Shown here: one piece after another, positions 1-47,364 of the stretch
How positions within the stretch are numbered: the first letter of the stretch is position 1
Layout: every line of letters begins with the position of its first letter
Source of the DNA: Candidatus Omnitrophota bacterium
Lineage (GTDB): Bacteria > Omnitrophota > Gorgyraeia > Velamenicoccales > JABMQK01
Assembly (NCBI GenBank): GCA_042570265.1
Contig: JBHPGU010000005.1
Span: 228 to 64,227, forward strand
Reading direction: 5' to 3'
Length of the DNA: 64,000 bases
Made by a program: the position numbers and the translations under genes
Notes under the pieces: generated by a model
The model's database searches: none
Seen by the model: only the letters and a program-made list of their open reading frames with translations
Told to the model about the DNA's origin: nothing

Positions 1-1457
1 TGCAGGCTCTGGGCGCCCAGCCTAAAGATAGGGTGGCAATATGCATGACACGGGGAATACTGCCTGTTATCGGGATTATGGGTATTTTAAAGGTAGGTGC
101 GACCTACGTGCCTATTGACCCGATGAGCCCTATGGGCCGTCTAGAATATATTGTCAAAAAATGCGCGCCAACTTCCTTAATTACCACTAAACAGAAACTA
201 AAAGAGGTAAAAGAAGAAATAATTAATGGTTCAAATCTAAAAACAATAATACTTATGGATGGTGATGGTAGCCGGACTGCATATGGACAAGCAAAAGTTA
301 TTGATTGGCCAACACTCTCTGATATCGGCTTGAATGAGAATGTGGATTCGGATATTAGCGATGACGATCTGGCATACATCCTTTTTACTTCAGGCTCAAC
401 AGGAACGCCTAAAGGAGTAATGATATCGCATCGTAACTCTTTGACCTTTATTGATTCAGTAGTTGATTTTTTCAATATTAGGGAAAGTGATCGTATTTCC
501 AATAATTCGCCGTTACATTTTGATCTTTCAGTATTCGATATGTTTGTGGCTTTTAAGAAGGGTGCTTCAGTGGTCATTGTATCAGAGATAATGACTGTGT
601 TCCCGGCAAAGTTAGCTGAATATATTCAGGAAAATGAAATAACAGTATGGAATTCTGTGCCGTCCTTATTAATACTATTGGCTAACTTCACATCGCTTGA
701 TAAATATGATCTTTCTAGTTTACGTCTGGTTTTATTCGCAGGCGAAGTGTTCCCCATTAAGTATCTTCGCCGATTAAAAAATATTTTATCTAAGGTTGAT
801 TTCTATAATATTTACGGCCAGACGGAAGCAAATTCCTCGACATATTATAAGGTTGCTGCGTTGCCCGATAAGGATACGGATGTGCTACCTATTGGTAAAC
901 CATTTTCTGGCTTCGAGGTCTTTGCGCTTGATGATAAGGGCAAGGTCGTACAATCCACCTCTGAAAAGGGAGAGTTGTATGTGCGCAGCAAGTCTGTGGC
1001 CCAGGGATATTGGCAAGAAGACGAGAAGACTGTCCAAGCTTTTGTTAAGGACCCTCTGATGCCGGAGGCTAGTGACAAGGTATATAAAACTGGGGATCTC
1101 GTTACTTTGGATGTAGCGGGAAATTATATATTTCTAGGTAGAAAAGACCATATGATTAAGAGCCGAGGCTATAGGATTGAGATAGGGGAGATTGAAACAG
1201 TTCTGTCGAGCCATCCAGATATTAAGACAGCTGTGGTCATTCCGATTCCAGACGAGCTTATTGGAAATAGGATTTCAGTTCTTGTCGTTCCATCTATGGC
1301 AGGCAAGCTTACAAAAGATGATATTGCTAAGTATTGTTTTAAGCATTTGCCTAAGTATATGATTCCTGAGATTATTGAGTTACGCGATTCTCTACCTACA
1401 ACTTCTTCCGGTAAGGCGGATAGGAAGAAATTGATGGAATCCATGTATAAATACTAA
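1..1457 (+). CDS. Amino-acid adenylation domain protein (AMP-dependent synthetase/ligase superfamily); 5' end lies outside the window
   Basis: The frame is open from nt 3, so the gene starts upstream of the window. Adenylate-forming core motifs occur in order: LAYILFTSGSTGTPKGV (A3), NIYGQTE (A5), YKTGDLV (A7), GRKDHMIKSRGYRIEIGEIE (A8), SSGKADRKKL (A10). No carrier or condensation domain follows. Confidence 0.85.
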   Translation, partial: QALGAQPKDRVAICMTRGILPVIGIMGILKVGATYVPIDPMSPMGRLEYIVKKCAPTSLITTKQKLKEVKEEIINGSNLKTIILMDGDGSRTAYGQAKVIDWPTLSDIGLNENVDSDISDDDLAYILFTSGSTGTPKGVMISHRNSLTFIDSVVDFFNIRESDRISNNSPLHFDLSVFDMFVAFKKGASVVIVSEIMTVFPAKLAEYIQENEITVWNSVPSLLILLANFTSLDKYDLSSLRLVLFAGEVFPIKYLRRLKNILSKVDFYNIYGQTEANSSTYYKVAALPDKDTDVLPIGKPFSGFEVFALDDKGKVVQSTSEKGELYVRSKSVAQGYWQEDEKTVQAFVKDPLMPEASDKVYKTGDLVTLDVAGNYIFLGRKDHMIKSRGYRIEIGEIETVLSSHPDIKTAVVIPIPDELIGNRISVLVVPSMAGKLTKDDIAKYCFKHLPKYMIPEIIELRDSLPTTSSGKADRKKLMESMYKY

Positions 1458-2160: not shown

Positions 2161-2919
2161 ATGTTTTTCTCTTACTTAAACAATAAATTTAAACAAACTA
2201 AGCACTACTGCCATCGTTTTGGTTTGAAAAAGTCTTTAATTAAAGTGGTGAGATCTGCATATTCAAAAATACATAGACAAATAGCTTGTATAGTGCTTGT
2301 GAAAGATTTGCTTGAAGAAACAAATTGCCCTATTGATTATAAGCTAAAATTACAAAAAATTGAAAAAATTCATTTAGACGCCTTGATAGAGTTTAATAGT
2401 AGATATGATTGGGGCACAGGCAGGATCTCCAATGCAAAAATTAACGATTATTTTGAAAAAAATTATGAAGGTTTTATCGCTTTTTTTGAAGGTAAAATTG
2501 TCGGCTATTTGTGGTGGGTCGACAATTCTACAAAAGCCAGAAAAAGTTATCCTCACCTCACCTTGTTTGGAATTGAACTAAAGGATAATGATGCATATGG
2601 TTTCCATTACTTTTTGGCTCCCGAATTCAGGGGTAAACACAATGCTACTGAATTTATGTGCAAAGTCTTCTTTGATTTAAAAGATCTTGGTTATAAGCGA
2701 TTTTTCGGCATCGCCTATACTGATAATATTTCAGCCAGGTGGCTTTATAGGTTTCTCGGTTTTAAAGATGTCAAAAAGATTATGGATCACAGATTATTTT
2801 ATTTTGTATTGGTCGTTAATAAAACAATATTTATTAAAACTAGAAGACAGTATATGTATTATCCGTTTCATTACCGGGTTGTTTTTCCTTTTAGGAATAT
2901 TAAGATTTTAAATAGATAG
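2161..2919 (+). CDS. GNAT-like acyltransferase
   Basis: 252-aa ORF starting 4 nt after the previous stop. GNAT-like segments: FRGKHNATEFMCKVF and NISARWLYRFLGFKDV. Confidence 0.6.
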   Translation: MFFSYLNNKFKQTKHYCHRFGLKKSLIKVVRSAYSKIHRQIACIVLVKDLLEETNCPIDYKLKLQKIEKIHLDALIEFNSRYDWGTGRISNAKINDYFEKNYEGFIAFFEGKIVGYLWWVDNSTKARKSYPHLTLFGIELKDNDAYGFHYFLAPEFRGKHNATEFMCKVFFDLKDLGYKRFFGIAYTDNISARWLYRFLGFKDVKKIMDHRLFYFVLVVNKTIFIKTRRQYMYYPFHYRVVFPFRNIKILNR

Positions 2920-5670: not shown

Positions 5671-7086
5671 ATGATTTGGAAAAATTTATACGATAAACTG
5701 CCAAGCCATACCTCAGATTCTATCAGGTCGCTTGCGAAGCGGGGATATGGCTTATTTCCTTTACGGGTGCGATGGGGTAGTGAATTCTTTAAGCAATTGG
5801 AATTTTTGGAGAAGAGTCAATGGTGGTCAAGGCAAGAGTTAGAGAATTATCAAAGTGAAAAATTGCGCCATTTAATTAAACACGCCTATGACAATACTTC
5901 CTACTACCGTAGGCTTTTTAAAGAAAATGGATTGTTGCCTAGTGATATAAAAACAATAAAGGATTTAGCAAAAATACCTATTTTGACAAAAGATATTGTA
6001 AGGGAGCATCTTCAGGAGTTGATAGCTACTAATATCGACAGAAAGACCCTTGTGCGTTTTTCTACGAGTGGGACCACTGGCAAGCCACTGATTTTCTTTT
6101 CTGAGAAACGCTTAGAGTTTTTTAACTTTGGCCCCTATATGTGGCGTCAATACATTTGGGGCGGACAAGGATTTAATGATTTGAAAGCCCTTCTGGGTTC
6201 ACATACCCTCAAGCCAAATAAAGAAGGAGCAAAAAAGATAATTTCTTATAATCCGGCCAGAAATCAGCTGATCTTATCAAGTTATGATATTAATCGAAGA
6301 AATGCTTCTTTATTTGCAGAGGCCTTAAGAAAGTATAAGCCTAAGATTATCGAGGCATTTCCTGCTTCTCTGGAAGCCTTGATAGGGTTTTTTAAAGAAC
6401 AGGGAGTCGAAAAACCTGTTCAGCCAAAGGCAATTTTTACTAACTCTGAGGTTCTGTATCCTTGGCAGAGAAAATTGATTGGTGAATATTTTGACTGTGA
6501 ACTATTTGATGTTTATTGTTTAGAGGAAAGAGTAGTAGTGGCAGCCGAATGCGAAAAGCATACAAAGCATCATATTTTTTCAGAGTATGGAATTGTAGAA
6601 TTAGTTGAAAATGGTTACCCAGTTGAGGAGGGGAAGCCCGGTGAGATTATTGCCACCAGCCTGAATAATTATGGCATGCCTTTTATTAGGTATAACACAA
6701 AAGATATAGGCTATTTTGTTAAAGAGAATTGCCCTTGTGGCCGAGGGTTGCCTTTATTAGGATTGGTGGGTGGCAGAAAGAGAAATTTTGTAGTTTCCCA
6801 GAGTGGGAGCGTGATTTCCATTACTATCGTAGATATTCCTAATGCTACTGATAATGTAAAACAGTTTCAATTTGTTCAGAAAGAGCAAGGGCAGCTGGAG
6901 TTAAAAATAGTCAGAAAGAATGACTTTTCACAGATTGATTTAAGAAAGATAGAGAAAAAGCTAAAGGAGAAATTCTTAGATGATATGGAGGTAGAGATTT
7001 GTTTTGTTGATTCGATTACTATGACTCAATCCGGAAAACAACCGTTATTAATTCAAAGGATGGATACTGATGGAACCAATAGGTAA
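5671..7086 (+). CDS. Adenylate-forming ligase of the phenylacetate-CoA ligase / CapK / coenzyme F390 synthetase type
   Basis: Adenylate P-loop STSGTTGKPL, later YNTKDIG and C-terminal TQSGKQ. Size (471 aa) and motif order are typical of PaaK-like enzymes. Confidence 0.8.
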   Translation: MIWKNLYDKLPSHTSDSIRSLAKRGYGLFPLRVRWGSEFFKQLEFLEKSQWWSRQELENYQSEKLRHLIKHAYDNTSYYRRLFKENGLLPSDIKTIKDLAKIPILTKDIVREHLQELIATNIDRKTLVRFSTSGTTGKPLIFFSEKRLEFFNFGPYMWRQYIWGGQGFNDLKALLGSHTLKPNKEGAKKIISYNPARNQLILSSYDINRRNASLFAEALRKYKPKIIEAFPASLEALIGFFKEQGVEKPVQPKAIFTNSEVLYPWQRKLIGEYFDCELFDVYCLEERVVVAAECEKHTKHHIFSEYGIVELVENGYPVEEGKPGEIIATSLNNYGMPFIRYNTKDIGYFVKENCPCGRGLPLLGLVGGRKRNFVVSQSGSVISITIVDIPNATDNVKQFQFVQKEQGQLELKIVRKNDFSQIDLRKIEKKLKEKFLDDMEVEICFVDSITMTQSGKQPLLIQRMDTDGTNR

Positions 7087-28927: not shown

Positions 28928-28970
28928 GCCCGCAAAATCATAAAAGAATAACCGAATATGAGTATAAATG

Positions 28971-29116
28971 TCTAATTTATAATTGCTCTAATTGATCTAA
29001 TGAAGTTCCAATGCCCAATGAGAAAATGAACAATAAAACTAAAGCAATTTATTCATTGGACATTAGGCATTGAGATTTGATTAGAAATTAGAATAATTAG
29101 GTTAATTAGAAATTAA
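28971..29116. repeat. AT-rich inverted-repeat element (REPIN/MITE-like), copy 1
   Basis: Left arm CTAATTGATCTAATGAAGTTCCAATG (28988-29013). Right arm GATTTGATTAGAAATTAGAATAATTAGGTTAATTAGAAATTA (29074-29115). Homologous to the copies at 33505-34182 and 41771-41915. Confidence 0.7.
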
Positions 29117-29155
29117 GATAAATATCTAATTTAATAAATATAAGGAGAATAAGGT

Positions 29156-30400
29156 TTGTTGACATTTGACTACGCTGCCAGAGATAAGGCAGGAAAATTA
29201 ATTGAAGGTTCTCAAGAAGCGCAGTCGCGCTACGATGCAATTGCCCAGTTAAGGCACAAAGGCCTTACTGTTGTCTATCTTTCTAAGGTTATTTCTGGTA
29301 AAGCAAAGAAGAAGGCAGCAGGTGCCCAGAAAAAAAAGAAGAAGAAGAAGCTCTTTGATATAAACCGGGTCAGTTTGACCGATCTTGCGGTATTCGCCCG
29401 CCAACTTTCTGTCTCTATTAATGCCGGCATGACAGCTATAGATTCCCTGCGTAGTATCGCCGAAGATATGGATAACCCTCATTTTAAAGAGATCCTGGAA
29501 GAAGTGGTCAACGATGTTAATTCCGGCAGCAGTTTATCAGAGGCGATTGGGAAACATAGGCAGACTTTCGGAACGTTATTTGTAGCCTTAATAAAGAGCG
29601 CTGAGGAATCTGGCAGTATGCCGCGAATACTCGATTACCTCTCTGGTTACCTTGAAAAGAGTGTGGCCTTAAGCATCAAAATTCGCACCATAACCGCCTA
29701 TCCAATCTTTGTAGCGGGGTTCTTTGTCATAGTGCTTTTGATAATGACACTCTTCATCTTACCCAAATTTGGCGAGATATTCTCTGGCTTTGATGCCGAA
29801 TTACCACCGCTTACCCGGATGGTCTTCGACATCAATAGATTCTCAATCAGGAATTTTCCTATATTCTTTATTTTAGCCGTCGTTTCTTGCGTGGGAATCT
29901 TTATGTATAACCGGACCCCTAAGGGCAGATTCAAGATAGACAAATTCAAGCTTAAACTACCATTTATCGGCAAGCTGCTGCAAAAAATTGCTGTGGCCAG
30001 ATTCTGTCAGGTGCTGGCAGTTATGGTCCGGGGAGGAGTCCCTATCGGCATTTCTCTGGATGTTGCTTCGGATGTCTGTGATAACAAGGTTATAGAGCAG
30101 TCTATTAAGCGGGTGAAGAAGGAGGTTATGAACGGGTCGGATATTGCCAGTAGTTTGGGACGGGATGAATCCTTTCCCCGTTTTGTGGTACGCATGTTTA
30201 GTATCGGCGAAGCCTCCGGAAAATTGGACGAAGTCCTGGATAAAATAACCAAGATGTATGAAGACCAGATAGAGGGTTCGATTATGATCGCGACTTCTAT
30301 GTTTGAGCCCGTTGTCATTACGATATTCGGAATTTTTGTCATGATAATACTACTGGCTATTTATATACCCATATTTAAGTTTGCGGCGAGTATGAATTGA
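29156..30400 (+). CDS. pilC: Type IV pilus platform protein PilC (GspF family)
   Basis: Two GspF repeats (LAVFARQLSVSINAGMTAIDSL; VARFCQVLAVMVRGGVPIGISL) and three TM helices. TTG start. Contains an atypical Lys-rich insert. Confidence 0.9.
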   Translation: MLTFDYAARDKAGKLIEGSQEAQSRYDAIAQLRHKGLTVVYLSKVISGKAKKKAAGAQKKKKKKKLFDINRVSLTDLAVFARQLSVSINAGMTAIDSLRSIAEDMDNPHFKEILEEVVNDVNSGSSLSEAIGKHRQTFGTLFVALIKSAEESGSMPRILDYLSGYLEKSVALSIKIRTITAYPIFVAGFFVIVLLIMTLFILPKFGEIFSGFDAELPPLTRMVFDINRFSIRNFPIFFILAVVSCVGIFMYNRTPKGRFKIDKFKLKLPFIGKLLQKIAVARFCQVLAVMVRGGVPIGISLDVASDVCDNKVIEQSIKRVKKEVMNGSDIASSLGRDESFPRFVVRMFSIGEASGKLDEVLDKITKMYEDQIEGSIMIATSMFEPVVITIFGIFVMIILLAIYIPIFKFAASMN

Positions 30401-31150: not shown

Positions 31151-31196
31151 ATTGTTAAGATTAACACAGATAATCATAATTTAATGAAAAATGCCA

Positions 31197-31290
31197 AATA
31201 TCTAATGACAAATGAATTTCCAATATCCAATGTCAAATTGGAAATTGGGAATTTGATATTTATTTGATATTTTGTATTTGACATTTGACA
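31197..31290. repeat. AT-rich inverted-repeat element, shorter or diverged copy 2
   Basis: TGAATTTCCAATATCCAAT faces ATTGGAAATTGGGAATTTGAT across a 5-nt spacer. It shares the AATGAATT(T/C)CCAAT core with the other copies. Confidence 0.5.
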
Positions 31291-31382
31291 TTATTCAGTG
31301 ATTATTAGGAATAATAAATTACTGTAATCGTTAAAGATCAACTTAGTTTATCATTATAGGGAATAAAAACAGAAACAAATAG

Positions 31383-32882: not shown

Positions 32883-33485
32883 ATGTTTTTCAAGATCAAT
32901 CTTATTAGAAGCAAGGCATTGTCACCTGACAAGAGGAAGAAGGTATTTTCTGTTATTACAGTTTATCTTCTAATCTGTATTCTAATTTTTGTTTTTCTAT
33001 TTCTTAAGGTTGGAGCCAGTTTGATTAGTATGGGTAGGTTTCGTAAAGAAGTCTTATCCCTGGAGAAAAGATTCCAGAGAAGCTCAAAACAAAGAAATAT
33101 CTCCGAGTATCACGAAGAAATGAGAACAGAGGTTGCTCAGTACCTAAACAGGCTTAAAGCTGTTGATAACGTCTTGTCAAAGGGCGTAGATGCTACTCAG
33201 ATTTTAGTGAAAATTTCTGAGGCCCTACCCCGAGGATCTTACGTAGATAATTTTAATTTAGATAATGATAAAAAGAAGTTAGATTTTAATATAGTAAGCC
33301 CCATAGGTAAGAAAGGTGAGGCTGTAAATATAAGCAAGCTTATTGCTATATGGAAGAAAGATAAGGCTTTGATGTCGGCTATAGAGAATATAACTTCCAG
33401 TCATAGCCAGAGACAGAAAAAGGGGCAGGATATGGTATTGATTTCACAGTTTTCCTGTATTCTTTCCGAGGGTGGAGTTAACTAA
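32883..33485 (+). CDS. pilN: PilN-like bitopic pilus alignment protein
   Basis: N-terminal INLI(R) motif (FKINLIRSK), single TM helix, coiled-coil periplasmic part. Starts 2 nt after pilM. Confidence 0.65.
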   Translation: MFFKINLIRSKALSPDKRKKVFSVITVYLLICILIFVFLFLKVGASLISMGRFRKEVLSLEKRFQRSSKQRNISEYHEEMRTEVAQYLNRLKAVDNVLSKGVDATQILVKISEALPRGSYVDNFNLDNDKKKLDFNIVSPIGKKGEAVNISKLIAIWKKDKALMSAIENITSSHSQRQKKGQDMVLISQFSCILSEGGVN

Positions 33486-33504
33486 AAGCAAAAAAATAGC
33501 CTGA

Positions 33505-34182
33505 AAATTTCTAATTTCTAATTACTAATTGACCTAATAAATTACCAATACTCAAAATACAATGACCAAAACATTACCACAACGCAAAAAATTACGTTTA
33601 GGGGGTTACGATTATTCATCTGAAGGATTATATTCGGTGACCATATGTACAAAAGACCGAGAAATGTATTTTGAAAATGAAGACACAAAAAATATGATCA
33701 CAGCCGTATGGAAGGAATTACCAAATAAATATAACAATATTCGATTAGACGAATATGTTATTATGCCCAATCATTTACACGGGATAATCGGTATCGTAGG
33801 GGCGAACCTACGTGTTCGCCCGAATGATGATACCGGGCCGACACATAGGTCGGCCCCTACATTGGGTCAAATTATTCAATGGTTCAAAACAATGACCACA
33901 AATTATTATATAAAGGGTGTTAAGGATAATGATTGGAAACCATTCTTAGGCAAATTATGGCAACGAAATTATTATGAACATGTCATCAGGGATGATGCAG
34001 ATTTAAACGAAATCAGGGAATATATTCACAATAACCCAATGAATTGGGATAATGATTCAGAGAATATAAAATAATTGGGATTTGATTAGTCCCGTGGAAT
34101 TCAGAGAATTCCCGGGATTTAATCCCCGCAATCTTGCAGATTGCAGGGGAAAATTAGGTTAATTAGATCAATTAGAAATTTC
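33505..34182 (+). mobile_element. RAYT-carrying element: Y1 transposase gene flanked by the AT-rich inverted-repeat arms
   Basis: Left arm AAAATTTCTAATTTCTAATTACTAATTGACCTAATAAATTACCAATA (33505-33550). Right arm GGATTTGATTAG (34076-34087) ... AAAATTAGGTTAATTAGATCAATTAGAAATTTC (34150-34182). These are the same arms as the ORF-less copies. Confidence 0.7.
33562..34074 (+). CDS. REP-associated tyrosine transposase (RAYT; IS200/IS605 Y1 HUH family)
   Basis: HUH motif in YVIMPNHLHGIIGI. C-terminal WQRNYYEHVIRDDADLNEIREYIHNNPMNW, carrying the catalytic Tyr region and the YI..NP motif typical of RAYTs. Confidence 0.85.
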   Translation: MTKTLPQRKKLRLGGYDYSSEGLYSVTICTKDREMYFENEDTKNMITAVWKELPNKYNNIRLDEYVIMPNHLHGIIGIVGANLRVRPNDDTGPTHRSAPTLGQIIQWFKTMTTNYYIKGVKDNDWKPFLGKLWQRNYYEHVIRDDADLNEIREYIHNNPMNWDNDSENIK

Positions 34183-34211
34183 AAAAGAATATTTCAAAAG
34201 GTGGAGTATAA

Positions 34212-34736
34212 ATGGATCTAGGTATATTTTTGAGTACAAAAAAGAAATTGGTAGCCTGGATTATCGGGCCGGTTTTGTTTCTAAGCATCTTGTATCTGCC
34301 GATTTTTATTTATTTTAAATCCGCCAATAACGATCTCAGCGAGAAAAAATTCATGCTGGAATCAATGCCGACTATAATTGAAAAGATCACTATGGCGCAA
34401 GTCATGTTAAAGAGCTATCAATCAAATGCTTCCAAGGGGGAAATCATAGAGTGGTTGAACTTCCAGTTAAACCAGATTGCCGGCAGTTGTGATTTTACCA
34501 TAGATTCGCTGGTTGTGAGGAAAGATAAATCTCCGAGCTCTAGCGGGGAAATGATTATCTATAATATTTCTGTTCAAGGTAAGGGGGAGCTTTTAGGGGT
34601 AATTAGTTTTTTTGAAAATAGTCAGGCCGTGATGCCGCTTCTTACTTTGGATGATGTGAAACTGCAAACTATAGGACATGCTTCGGAACATATTTATGAC
34701 GCCAAGGTCACTTTTTCTTATAACAATTTGTCGTAG
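34212..34736 (+). CDS. PilO-like bitopic membrane protein
   Basis: 174 aa with a single N-terminal TM helix. The call rests on position after pilM-pilN. There is no strong motif. Confidence 0.45.
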   Translation: MDLGIFLSTKKKLVAWIIGPVLFLSILYLPIFIYFKSANNDLSEKKFMLESMPTIIEKITMAQVMLKSYQSNASKGEIIEWLNFQLNQIAGSCDFTIDSLVVRKDKSPSSSGEMIIYNISVQGKGELLGVISFFENSQAVMPLLTLDDVKLQTIGHASEHIYDAKVTFSYNNLS

Positions 34737-37949: not shown

Positions 37950-38023
37950 GCGCCCGTAGCTTAATTGGATAGAGCACCAGTCTACGGAACTGGTTGTTGC
38001 TGGTTCGAATCCAGCCGGGCGCA
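37950..38023 (+). tRNA. tRNA-Arg (anticodon ACG)
   Basis: Hand-folded cloverleaf: GCGCCCG/CGGGCGC acceptor, GCTT/GAGC D stem, CCAGT-CTACGGA-ACTGG anticodon arm, GCTGG-TTCGAAT-CCAGC T arm, discriminator A. No encoded CCA. Confidence 0.9.
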
Positions 38024-38654: not shown

Positions 38655-38743
38655 GGAGAGGTGCTTGAGTGGTTGAAAAGAGCTGCCTGCTAAGCAGTTG
38701 GCCTGGGCAACCGGGCCCTCGGGTTCGAATCCCGACCTCTCCG
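38655..38743 (+). tRNA. tRNA-Ser (anticodon GCU)
   Basis: GGAGAGG/CCTCTCC acceptor, anticodon arm GCTGC-CTGCTAA-GCAGT, long variable arm (TGGCCTGGGCAACCGGGCC), T arm CTCGG-GTTCGAATC-CCGA(C), discriminator G. Confidence 0.9.
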
Positions 38744-41770: not shown

Positions 41771-41915
41771 CCAAATTACTAATTAGTAATTTCTAATTGA
41801 CCTAATGAATTCCCAATAGACCAATTATAACTGACATTTTTTTTGCTTTTAAATAATTTATTCATCAGTCATTGGGGTTTAATTAGAAATTAGAATTATT
41901 AGTAATTAGAAATTC
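41771..41915. repeat. AT-rich inverted-repeat element (REPIN/MITE-like), copy 4
   Basis: Left arm CTAATTGACCTAATGAATTCCCAATAG (41793-41819). Right arm GGTTTAATTAGAAATTAGAATTATTAGTAATTAGAAATTC (41876-41915). Shares the interior AATTTATTCAT with copy 1. Confidence 0.7.
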
Positions 41916-41929
41916 AATTCTTAAATAAA

Positions 41930-47252: not shown

Positions 47253-47331
47253 AGTTAACCAACAAAAGTTAATATTCTATATATTGTTGGTTAACTTATT
47301 CCTTGACTTTTATTAACCAACAACGTATATT
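47253..47331 (+). promoter_or_regulatory. Promoter with repeated operator-like sites
   Basis: 13-bp inverted repeat AGTTAACCAACAA (47253-65) / TTGTTGGTTAACT (47284-96). A third copy, TTAACCAACAA (47313-23), sits inside the spacer of TTGACT (47303-08)-17 nt-TATATT (47326-31). GGTTAACT recurs next to the RBS. Confidence 0.55.
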
Positions 47332-47364
47332 ATTAGTATATGTGTAGGTTAACTTGGAGGAAAT

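Follow-up and report, generated by a model that had tools for sequence, protein, structure and literature searches.

TnpA_Y1 subclass 2.4, as defined by Quentin et al. (2018) and corresponding to RAYT Group 4 of Bertels et al. (2017), is a class of REP-associated tyrosine transposases (RAYTs) characterized by the motifs NH[IFV]H, WQ and YIxNNP, by 'double-foot' repetitive extragenic palindromes (REPs), and by REPs that lie in-frame within tnpA_REP itself (PMC6006769). Another described arrangement is the TIRtron, or TIRYT, in which a RAYT-type gene is bounded by terminal inverted repeats (TIRs) that are long and have no relation to GTAG REPs (Di Nocera et al. 2013, PMC3733652); TIRYT proteins probably belong to subclass 2.1, according to Quentin et al. 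(PMC6006769). PF05635 genes, in turn, are the open reading frames (ORFs) of the classical hairpin-bounded intervening sequences (IVSs) of 23S rRNA, which are excised by RNase III and whose mobility is unexplained (PMC4990558). With these systems we compared an insert in a type IV pilus operon of a Candidatus Omnitrophota bacterium (contig JBHPGU010000005.1 of assembly GCA_042570265.1), located within a stretch of 64,000 nucleotides that is called the window below. The insert consists of a RAYT gene enclosed by two AT-rich arms. The RAYT class, the in-frame REP, TIR-flanked RAYTs and hairpin-bounded PF05635 elements are all already described, and the premise of the initial annotation of this DNA that TIR-flanked RAYTs are unusual is outdated since the description of TIRtrons by Di Nocera et al. 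(PMC3733652). In the literature searched, however, we found neither a subclass 2.4 RAYT as the loop cargo of an IVS-like cassette nor a family of CTAATT-array cassettes spread across the intergenic and operon DNA of Patescibacteria and Omnitrophota. The reading that we favor, with a confidence only a little above even, is that the RAYT is the captured cargo of an IVS-like hairpin cassette that later landed in the pilus operon, the enzyme being a passenger and not the mobilizer.

The insertion could be examined directly because orthologous junctions were available from four relatives (loci L208-L211), whose PilN-like homologs share 58-80% identity with that of the window. The pilO-like ATG follows the pilN stop codon after 0-1 nt in 4/4 of these loci, while the two genes are spaced by 726 nt in the window. 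The closest empty site, in L210, reads ...ccgagggtggagtaTAA|ATG and lies at a synonymous divergence (dS) of ~0.5. At the occupied site the target is duplicated over 8-16 nt with a perfect core of 8 nt (GGTGGAGT). The left copy still terminates pilN, and the right copy recreates the ancestral pilO ribosome-binding site and spacing; the PilN-like C-terminus is one residue longer (an extra Asn) than in the closest relative. The arm and RAYT unit is thus an insertion into the pilus operon that is specific to this lineage, in agreement with the initial annotation, which had proposed an inserted element and had called for this comparison. It represents a clean before-and-after case of a small selfish element entering a translationally coupled junction with neither gene broken.

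The surrounding genes form a same-strand type IV filament cluster in the order T2SSE ATPase, hairpin A, T2SSF, two pilins, PilM, PilN-like protein, insert, PilO-like protein and pseudopilins. T2SSE, T2SSF, the two pilins and PilM were confirmed with hidden Markov models (HMMs). The PilN-like and PilO-like proteins matched no Pfam or NCBIfam model, and their labels derive from position and conserved synteny. The RAYT ORF is co-oriented within this cluster, as described earlier; the pilN and pilO labels given there are positional only.

A gapless inverted-repeat finder missed the AT-rich hairpins of the window owing to indels between their arms, and we employed a custom nhmmer arm profile instead. 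With this profile, exactly six arms were significant in 64 kb (E 6.5e-15 to 1.4e-4): one pair at 28965-29116, another at 41772-41916 and the pair that flanks the RAYT ORF; the chance expectation for the exact arm strings is zero. The left arm of the insert begins with an outer array of CTAATT units (33505-33541), which is followed by a CCAAT-type inner segment that continues up to the ATG. The terminal 12 nt on the two sides (33505-33516 and 34170-34181) are 100% complementary, and this, together with the profile hits on both flanks, bears out the earlier observation that the arms are inverted relative to each other around the ORF. In an RNA fold of 33495-34195 the arms paired around the whole ORF in both the minimum free energy and the centroid structure (z -7.4). 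Hence, as in an IVS-type cassette, the terminal inverted repeats of the insert form a long stem that encloses the ORF. The coordinates of these and all other features are collected in the table.

Features of the insert, its flanks, the ORF-less hairpins of the window and PF05635 genes associated with the arm family (window positions unless a locus is named)
Feature	Position	Strand	Details
pilN-like gene	32883..33485	+	200 aa; just upstream of the insert; intact C-terminus ...SEGGVN*
Left copy of duplicated target TTTCCGAGGGTGGAGT	33463..33478	+	pilN 3' end with pilO ribosome-binding site; direct repeat
Junction filler TAACTAAAAGC...	33479..33502	+	new pilN stop codon 33483-33485 and short pre-arm spacer
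Left arm of hairpin cassette	33503..33561	+	nhmmer arm profile E 1.2e-11; pairs with right arm in RNA fold
RAYT / TnpA_REP-like Y1 HUH gene	33562..34074	+	170 aa; fills the hairpin loop exactly
RAYT motifs	NHLH residues 70-73; WQ 133-134; YIHNNP 154-159		family alignment
In-frame 'double-foot' REP	33796..33860	+	GTAGGGGCGAAC..GTTCGCCC / GGCCGAC..GTCGGCCCCTAC; between HUH and Tyr motifs
Inner right arm AATTGGGATTTGATTAG	34073..34089	+	overlaps RAYT stop codon; weak arm-profile hit 34074-34089; paired in fold
Two-GC-hairpin module	34090..34149	+	breaks up the right arm; inverted repeats, fold z -4.9
Outer right arm	34150..34187	+	AATTAG array (34150-34182), end AATTAGAAATTT; nhmmer E 1.4e-4; terminus common to L007
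Right copy of duplicated target TTTCAAAAGGTGGAGT	34192..34207	+	with ATAA rebuilds the ancestral sequence before the pilO-like start
pilO-like gene	34212..34736	+	174 aa; directly 3' of the insert; orthologs abut pilN in L208-L211
ORF-less hairpin element A	28962..29119	.	nhmmer E 6.5e-15, 9.1e-11; DNA fold z -4.2
Marginal core-only hairpin	~31181..31300	.	between two pilin genes; nhmmer E 0.24; fold z -2.65
ORF-less hairpin element B	41772..41916	.	nhmmer E 1.3e-12, 7.7e-12; fold z -2.9; upstream of ORF starting 41930
Hairpin member with a PF05635 gene between its paired arms	L021:2958-3393, L062:3920-4379, L209:4467-4963		
Arm-adjacent PF05635-like gene	L008 ~2323-2724		tblastn only

The enclosed ORF was next assigned to a family. 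It matches Pfam Y1_Tnp (PF01797; E 2.9e-11; 44 bits, with the cutoff at 23), so the HMM check suggested for it in the initial annotation gave a match above the gathering score. Its best NCBIfam model was REP_Tyr_transpos (NF047646), at 75.7 bits and thus just under the 80-bit equivalog cutoff; assignment to the RAYT class stands despite this near miss, whereas strict equivalog naming does not. The IS200 model gave 30.5 bits against a cutoff of 55, far below the REP_Tyr_transpos score of the same ORF. An IS200/IS605 identity was ruled out on this sub-cutoff score, on the tyrosine motif of the form Y...NP (class 2) and on the single copy of the gene in the 64-kb window. A PDB search with the single ORF sequence returned no match, and a family profile was needed; profile A2, built from 19 RAYT family members, matched Escherichia coli TnpA_REP (PDB 4ER8) at E 2.5e-5. 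In that alignment H71-L-H73 falls on the HUH motif, with PNH(L)HGI opposite PEHMHCI, and Y154 (REYIHNNP) stands opposite the catalytic Y115 (VDYIYINP). With the Pfam match above cutoff and the 4ER8 alignment in register, the original identification of the ORF as a RAYT-class Y1 enzyme of the HUH/Tyr type is upheld. An exact-protein lookup with the 170-aa sequence found no match, and the source annotation gives a shorter product of 136 aa at the locus (P0002). The nearest named relative of the window RAYT comes from an Omnitrophica WOR_2 metagenome-assembled genome (MAG). Because the ratio of nonsynonymous to synonymous substitution rates (dN/dS) is 0.15-0.18 against relatives at 84%, 88% and 69% identity, the RAYT is kept under purifying selection.

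Between the HUH and Tyr motifs of this protein lies an in-frame REP that encodes VGANLRVRP...GPTHRSAPT, with GTAG at its start and CTAC at its end, and that forms an inverted repeat of two hairpins (DNA fold z -5.4). A variable insert at this position is seen across phyla in the family alignment. Among 80 metagenomic loci with RAYT homologs of 42-56% identity, nearly all contain a GTAGGGG...CCCCTAC module, typically ~240 nt into the ORF, and many have additional GTAGGGG/CCCCTAC modules just beyond the gene; over the 82 more distant loci as a whole, these 80 plus two with homologs of 60-61% identity, GTAG REPs lie inside the gene and often also beside it. An Omnitrophota RAYT homolog of 69% identity (L002) has copies of the REP module on both sides of the gene. 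These are partial copies of the internal module of that RAYT (L002:5868-5955 and 6540-6595), the upstream one taking in the preceding HGIISIVG coding sequence and the downstream one giving the C-terminal residues of the protein. A second GTAGGGG...CCCCTAC module was found neither near the window RAYT, within the +/-1000 nt considered for REPtron-type flanking, nor anywhere else in the 64 kb.

On these features, the window RAYT appears to match TnpA_Y1 subclass 2.4, including the in-frame GTAG...CTAC REP between HUH and Tyr that belongs to the subclass signature; the assignment was made by motifs and the in-frame REP. It shares with that subclass an HUH/Tyr core that aligns to 4ER8, the WQ and YIxNNP motifs without a C-terminal tail domain, an HUH-Tyr insert derived from the in-frame REP, a patchy distribution across phyla and occurrence as a single copy in the window. 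It differs in its length (170 aa compared with a median of 194) and in its HUH sequence NHLH, whose middle leucine is outside the published NH[IFV]H, relatives at 84-88% identity having NHIH or NHMH. Unlike relatives such as L002 it has no flanking GTAG REP, and unrelated AT-rich arms enclose the gene. The two GC-rich hairpins that interrupt the right arm were considered as REPs of the RAYT and rejected, as they carry no GTAG foot and have no second copy in the window; they were also rejected as a terminator, since no T-run follows them and a terminator scan was negative. Other GC modules occupy the same position in the right arm in L007, a related MAG contig (GCA_964520705.1), and in L209, the pil cluster of the 58% relative. 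A conserved GC-rich module of ~55 nt (...GAGTACTTGCGCRAAGCGCAAYGTA...) is found at L007:8300-8360 and L209:530-585, at the same place within the right arm in two elements and two genomes.

We then asked where else the arms accompany a RAYT. L007 is 86.6% identical to the window at the nucleotide level over positions 33503-33860; its unit is located between valS and nadC and ends in the same right terminus, ...AATTAGAAATTT, and no further matches to the window occur within the 16-kb locus. The arms therefore delimit a unit that is present at different loci in two genomes, and to this extent the earlier view of the flanks as the ends of a mobile unit holds; they do not, however, look like the RAYT's own ends or REPs. 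The RAYT copy of L007 is cut short exactly behind CCCCTAC, the internal REP's 3' foot, which suggests past cleavage or recombination at this foot; the copy lacks the catalytic tyrosine and still has both arms. At a third locus, L212 (84% RAYT identity), the inner right arm is retained after the stop codon. The window, L007 and L212 make up the RAYT sub-lineage of at least 84% identity, and the arms were seen only there. They were absent from all 80 loci with RAYT homologs of 42-56% identity (0/80) and from two with homologs of 60-61% identity.

The shared structure of the units in the window and L007 also bears on the possibility of two separate events, in which an empty AT-rich hairpin would first have entered the pilN/pilO junction and the RAYT would later have transposed into its loop by its own REP mechanism. 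This would imply that hairpin loops are a preferred RAYT target. Y1 enzymes insert into single-stranded DNA (ssDNA), where hairpin loops lie exposed, as established for IS200/IS605, and hairpins do accumulate in this operon (element A, the ~31.2-kb relic and several in L209). Nevertheless, 0/4 relatives have a hairpin at the junction, the ORF abuts both arms with no space for ends of the RAYT's own, and the window and L007 share the arm-to-ATG junction at two chromosomal sites. Since one junction shared by two sites argues for a single capture followed by movement of the composite, we regard two independent events as very improbable.

The arms themselves proved to be far more widespread than the RAYT. 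We derived a 22-base pattern from the window and scanned it over a species-representative genome collection, which returned at least 120 stretches, mostly in Patescibacteria and also in Chlamydiae, Bacteroidales and other MAGs. Among the loci listed, together with L208-L212, there were 35 arm pairs, most of them hairpins of 80-200 nt with a common layout of CTAATT array, CCAAT-type inner segment, loop and mirror image (examples from L008-L127 are L066:1468-1575, L111:2243-2351, and L102:1383-1526 and 1971-2104). Over the same loci the sole ORF cargo between paired arms was a PF05635/TIGR02436 four-helix-bundle gene, which lay within paired arms in L021, L062 and L209. Across Patescibacteria, Omnitrophota and further phyla, the CTAATT-array cassette is thus usually empty, resembling a miniature inverted-repeat transposable element (MITE) of 80-200 nt, or carries a PF05635/TIGR02436 gene. 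The 845 kb of arm-bearing genome loci among the matches listed contained neither a RAYT nor an IS200-type gene. The notion that the arms are specific to the RAYT consequently fails, being contradicted by the cross-phylum arm family, its PF05635 cargo and this 845 kb free of Y1 genes. The window, conversely, contains no PF05635 homolog, its cargo being Y1_Tnp. A scan of viral contigs gave 43 hits to the outer CTAATT array only, mostly in tandem repeats and with no full hairpin or cargo, and hence provided no evidence for phage as a vector of the hairpins.

The PF05635-bearing members look like IVS elements placed outside rRNA. The family resembles the 23S rRNA IVSs with an S23p/PF05635 ORF of Leptospira and Coxiella (PMC4990558) in being bounded by a hairpin with a small ORF in its loop, in being AT-rich relative to the host, in a sporadic distribution that suggests horizontal spread, and in the PF05635/TIGR02436 genes enclosed by its arms. 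It differs in that its arms occur in mRNA operons and intergenic DNA and are built as short CTAATT arrays and not as a simple stem; in the window the cargo is a RAYT and not PF05635, and RNase III excision would hold there by analogy. The pil cluster L209 provides several further members, with one empty and one PF05635-bearing hairpin in the pilM-pilN spacer and another hairpin in the pilB-pilC spacer, where the window has element A. Small elements have repeatedly colonized the spacers between the genes of this operon. L209 also contains a canonical IS200 TnpA between pilC and a pilin gene (L209:1985-2362) and a hairpin of another family, with ACAAATTACAA-type arms and a degenerate PF05635 start (L209:3150-3340). 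In L002, T2SSE and T2SSF have a PF05635 gene between them (L002:11490-11945), which is flanked by different inverted arms that consist of heptamers with GTAG, repeated in tandem (GAGTAGAGAGTAGTAAGTAGAAAGTAGATAGTAGG and the mirror image); a link of these arms to the RAYT is possible, GTAG being its guide tetranucleotide.

Within the window, the two ORF-less hairpins resemble the family at large. Element A lies between the T2SSE ATPase and T2SSF/pilC genes (neighbors assigned by Pfam), and element B is 87% identical to the RAYT left arm over 46 nt. A hairpin between the two pilin genes resembles the inner (CTAAT..CCAAT) part of the arm only. The report of three other ORF-less sites was accordingly right for two full hairpins, A and B, the third being a marginal core. 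Arms within the window are 0.75-0.87 alike, compared with 0.79-0.82 across genomes; because they are no more alike than arms of different genomes, no recent local burst of arm copies is indicated. Like Correia/NEMIS MITEs and REPINs, A and B are imperfect, non-coding hairpins of 140-160 nt between co-oriented genes. Unlike these, they show no TA-type or other consistent target-site duplication, and the copies are 75-87% alike and do not form a near-identical population. The arms, moreover, are not REP palindromes, have no GTAG and belong to a family that spans several phyla. In the REPIN-RAYT systems of Bertels and Rainey, the flanking repeat is reportedly abundant genome-wide, near-identical and composed of two inverted REP palindromes; set against this, the window has three arm loci in 64 kb (a count on the scale of the window), whose copies are 75-87% alike and whose arms are not palindromes.

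The position of such elements raises the question of whether they are mobile at all. The arms could serve the host mainly in cis-regulation, at the RNA or DNA level, for instance as processing or stabilizer stems or as intergenic protein-binding arrays, with the RAYT merely lying between two of them. Their location between co-oriented genes would agree with this, as would the conserved CTAATT core with variable spacers of 1-3 nt, which is more like iterated protein-binding sites than a strict stem, and the lack of target-site duplication at the hairpin copies. We consider a purely regulatory role improbable all the same, given that the pilN/pilO site shows presence/absence polymorphism with target duplication, that one sequence family occurs in unrelated phyla, and that the cargo enclosed is of selfish type (PF05635 or RAYT). 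In addition, an Rfam search at E<=1 over 28-43 kb returned only two tRNAs and chance-level hits, and no Rfam family matched the hairpins.

A more serious alternative concerns the RAYT itself as the agent of mobility. The insert fits the descriptive definition of a TIRtron, with long non-GTAG terminal inverted repeats around a RAYT-type gene and TIR dimers elsewhere in the genome, and the definition is silent on whether the RAYT acts on the TIRs. In the corresponding explanation, which also takes the insert as an oversized REPIN, the RAYT would recognize the AT-rich arms as ssDNA hairpins and would move itself as well as, in trans, elements A and B. The exact position of the RAYT between the inverted arms, the ORF-less copies in the same genome, the occurrence of arms with RAYT at different loci in two genomes, the inner right arm retained after the stop codon in L212, and the purifying selection on the protein are all consistent with this proposal. 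RAYTs bounded by TIRs of moderately abundant families have moreover been described as a class (PMC3733652), and hairpin copies without consistent target-site duplication are expected of Y1 enzymes. On the other hand, a GT[AG]G guide is missing from the arms, and the conserved partner of the family is the GC-rich GTAG REP (PMC6006769). The arms were found at 0/82 more distant RAYT loci, they are abundant where no Y1 gene is nearby, in other phyla and with different cargo, the local copies (75-87% alike) are no closer than those of other genomes, and the truncated, Tyr-less L007 copy still has both arms. The window insert also differs from TIRtrons in that its protein is a RAYT of the GTAG-REP type, as opposed to the probable subclass 2.1 of TIRYT proteins, and in that its TIRs are shared with cassettes of other genes and with genomes or loci without a Y1 gene. 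We therefore judge this explanation to be unlikely, yet one to be taken seriously. The initial annotation had read the arms as the RAYT's own ends; the internal GTAG REP as cognate repeat and the 0/82 count speak against that assignment.

If, as we prefer, the RAYT is a captured passenger, the insert would be a composite of two selfish elements, an AT-rich hairpin shell and a subclass 2.4 RAYT in its loop. Support for a capture comes from the start of the gene. A degenerate PF05635 remnant (MTKTYDLEDR) in another L209 hairpin (~3203) opens with the same ATGACCAAAACAT (MTKT) as the window RAYT, whose homology to the RAYT of L212 (84% identity; MG-LPQR...) does not set in until codon 5. Taken with the stop codon that abuts the inner right arm, which itself (AATTGGGATTTGATTAG) resembles the inner right arm of the ORF-less elements, the shared start and the onset of homology at codon 5 suggest a cargo swap, in which a RAYT body stands in place of a PF05635 ORF. 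In the window sub-lineage the RAYT would have taken the place in the loop and been fused at codon 5 to the start codon of the cassette; its body, ending where the inner right arm begins, would have replaced the PF05635 ORF and used the initiation region of the cassette. The composite would then have travelled as one unit to the abutting pilN-stop/pilO-start junction, where landing with an 8-16-nt duplication would have left pilN its stop codon and pilO its ribosome-binding site. The DNA partner of the RAYT would be its own GTAG 'double-foot' REP rather than the AT-rich arms.

Several points weigh against this interpretation. The argument for the cargo swap uses 13 identical nucleotides, some of which also belong to the arm motif CCAATGACCAA. 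No consistent target-site duplication was found at 30 other hairpin copies, and the 8-16-nt duplication, being unmatched there, could reflect selection and not mechanism. RAYTs act on ssDNA hairpins and TIR-flanked RAYTs are documented, so an arm-mobilizing RAYT would look alike (PMC3733652). The arm loci come from a window-derived pattern with at least 120 stretches listed, some of which are simple tandem repeats. The evidence covers individual loci, and a RAYT may be present elsewhere in hairpin-rich genomes. Finally, RNase III processing and read-through of the insert are argued by analogy.

With regard to expression, a scan for intrinsic-terminator-like sites was negative from the RAYT stop codon to the start of the pilO-like gene, and matches resembling promoters were at chance level (10 found compared with 7.3 +/- 2.6 expected). 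Because of these two results, we infer that the operon is transcribed by read-through across the insert. Under the passenger interpretation, transcription would run straight through, the arms would pair in the transcript as a long stem around the RAYT message, and RNase III may cleave it, as rRNA IVSs and Correia elements suggest by analogy. As read from the sequence, a Shine-Dalgarno motif is lacking from the RAYT and present in the pilO-like gene, and translation of the RAYT is therefore probably weak.

RAYTs are usually taken for domesticated genes that are present once and bound to REPs of their own; on this account, one would be able to ride in an unrelated hairpin cassette. The cassette family may matter more than the insert, as it ties MITE-like repeats of ultra-small groundwater bacteria (Patescibacteria, Omnitrophota) to PF05635 IVS genes. 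As a broader and speculative proposal, to which we attach a small probability, the CTAATT hairpins would be cross-phylum mobile 'loop-cargo' cassettes, free-living relatives of IVSs with exchangeable cargo, that are moved as ssDNA by a Y1 HUH enzyme of the kind of this RAYT. If an HUH enzyme does move the cassettes, IVS elements would gain a transposition mechanism, and the question of their origin and mobility would become testable.

The remaining observations concern the window at large. Its GC content is 39%. Every plausible gene of 120 aa or more is encoded by the + strand, and the few ORFs of the minus strand sit within longer + ORFs. Two tRNA genes lie just downstream of the pilus cluster, at 37950-38023 and 38655-38743 (Rfam tRNA, 68.5 and 56.9 bits). 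Close to the N-terminus of the T2SSF/PilC homolog (29156-30400) there are eight lysines in a row (...AQKKKKKKKKLFD...), encoded by an A-rich tract. A region with no long ORF contains, at 47253-47354, an inverted repeat of 42 nt (AGTTAACCAACAA... / ...TTGTTGGTTAACT-like) whose copies are 18 nt apart; it is unrelated to the arm family.

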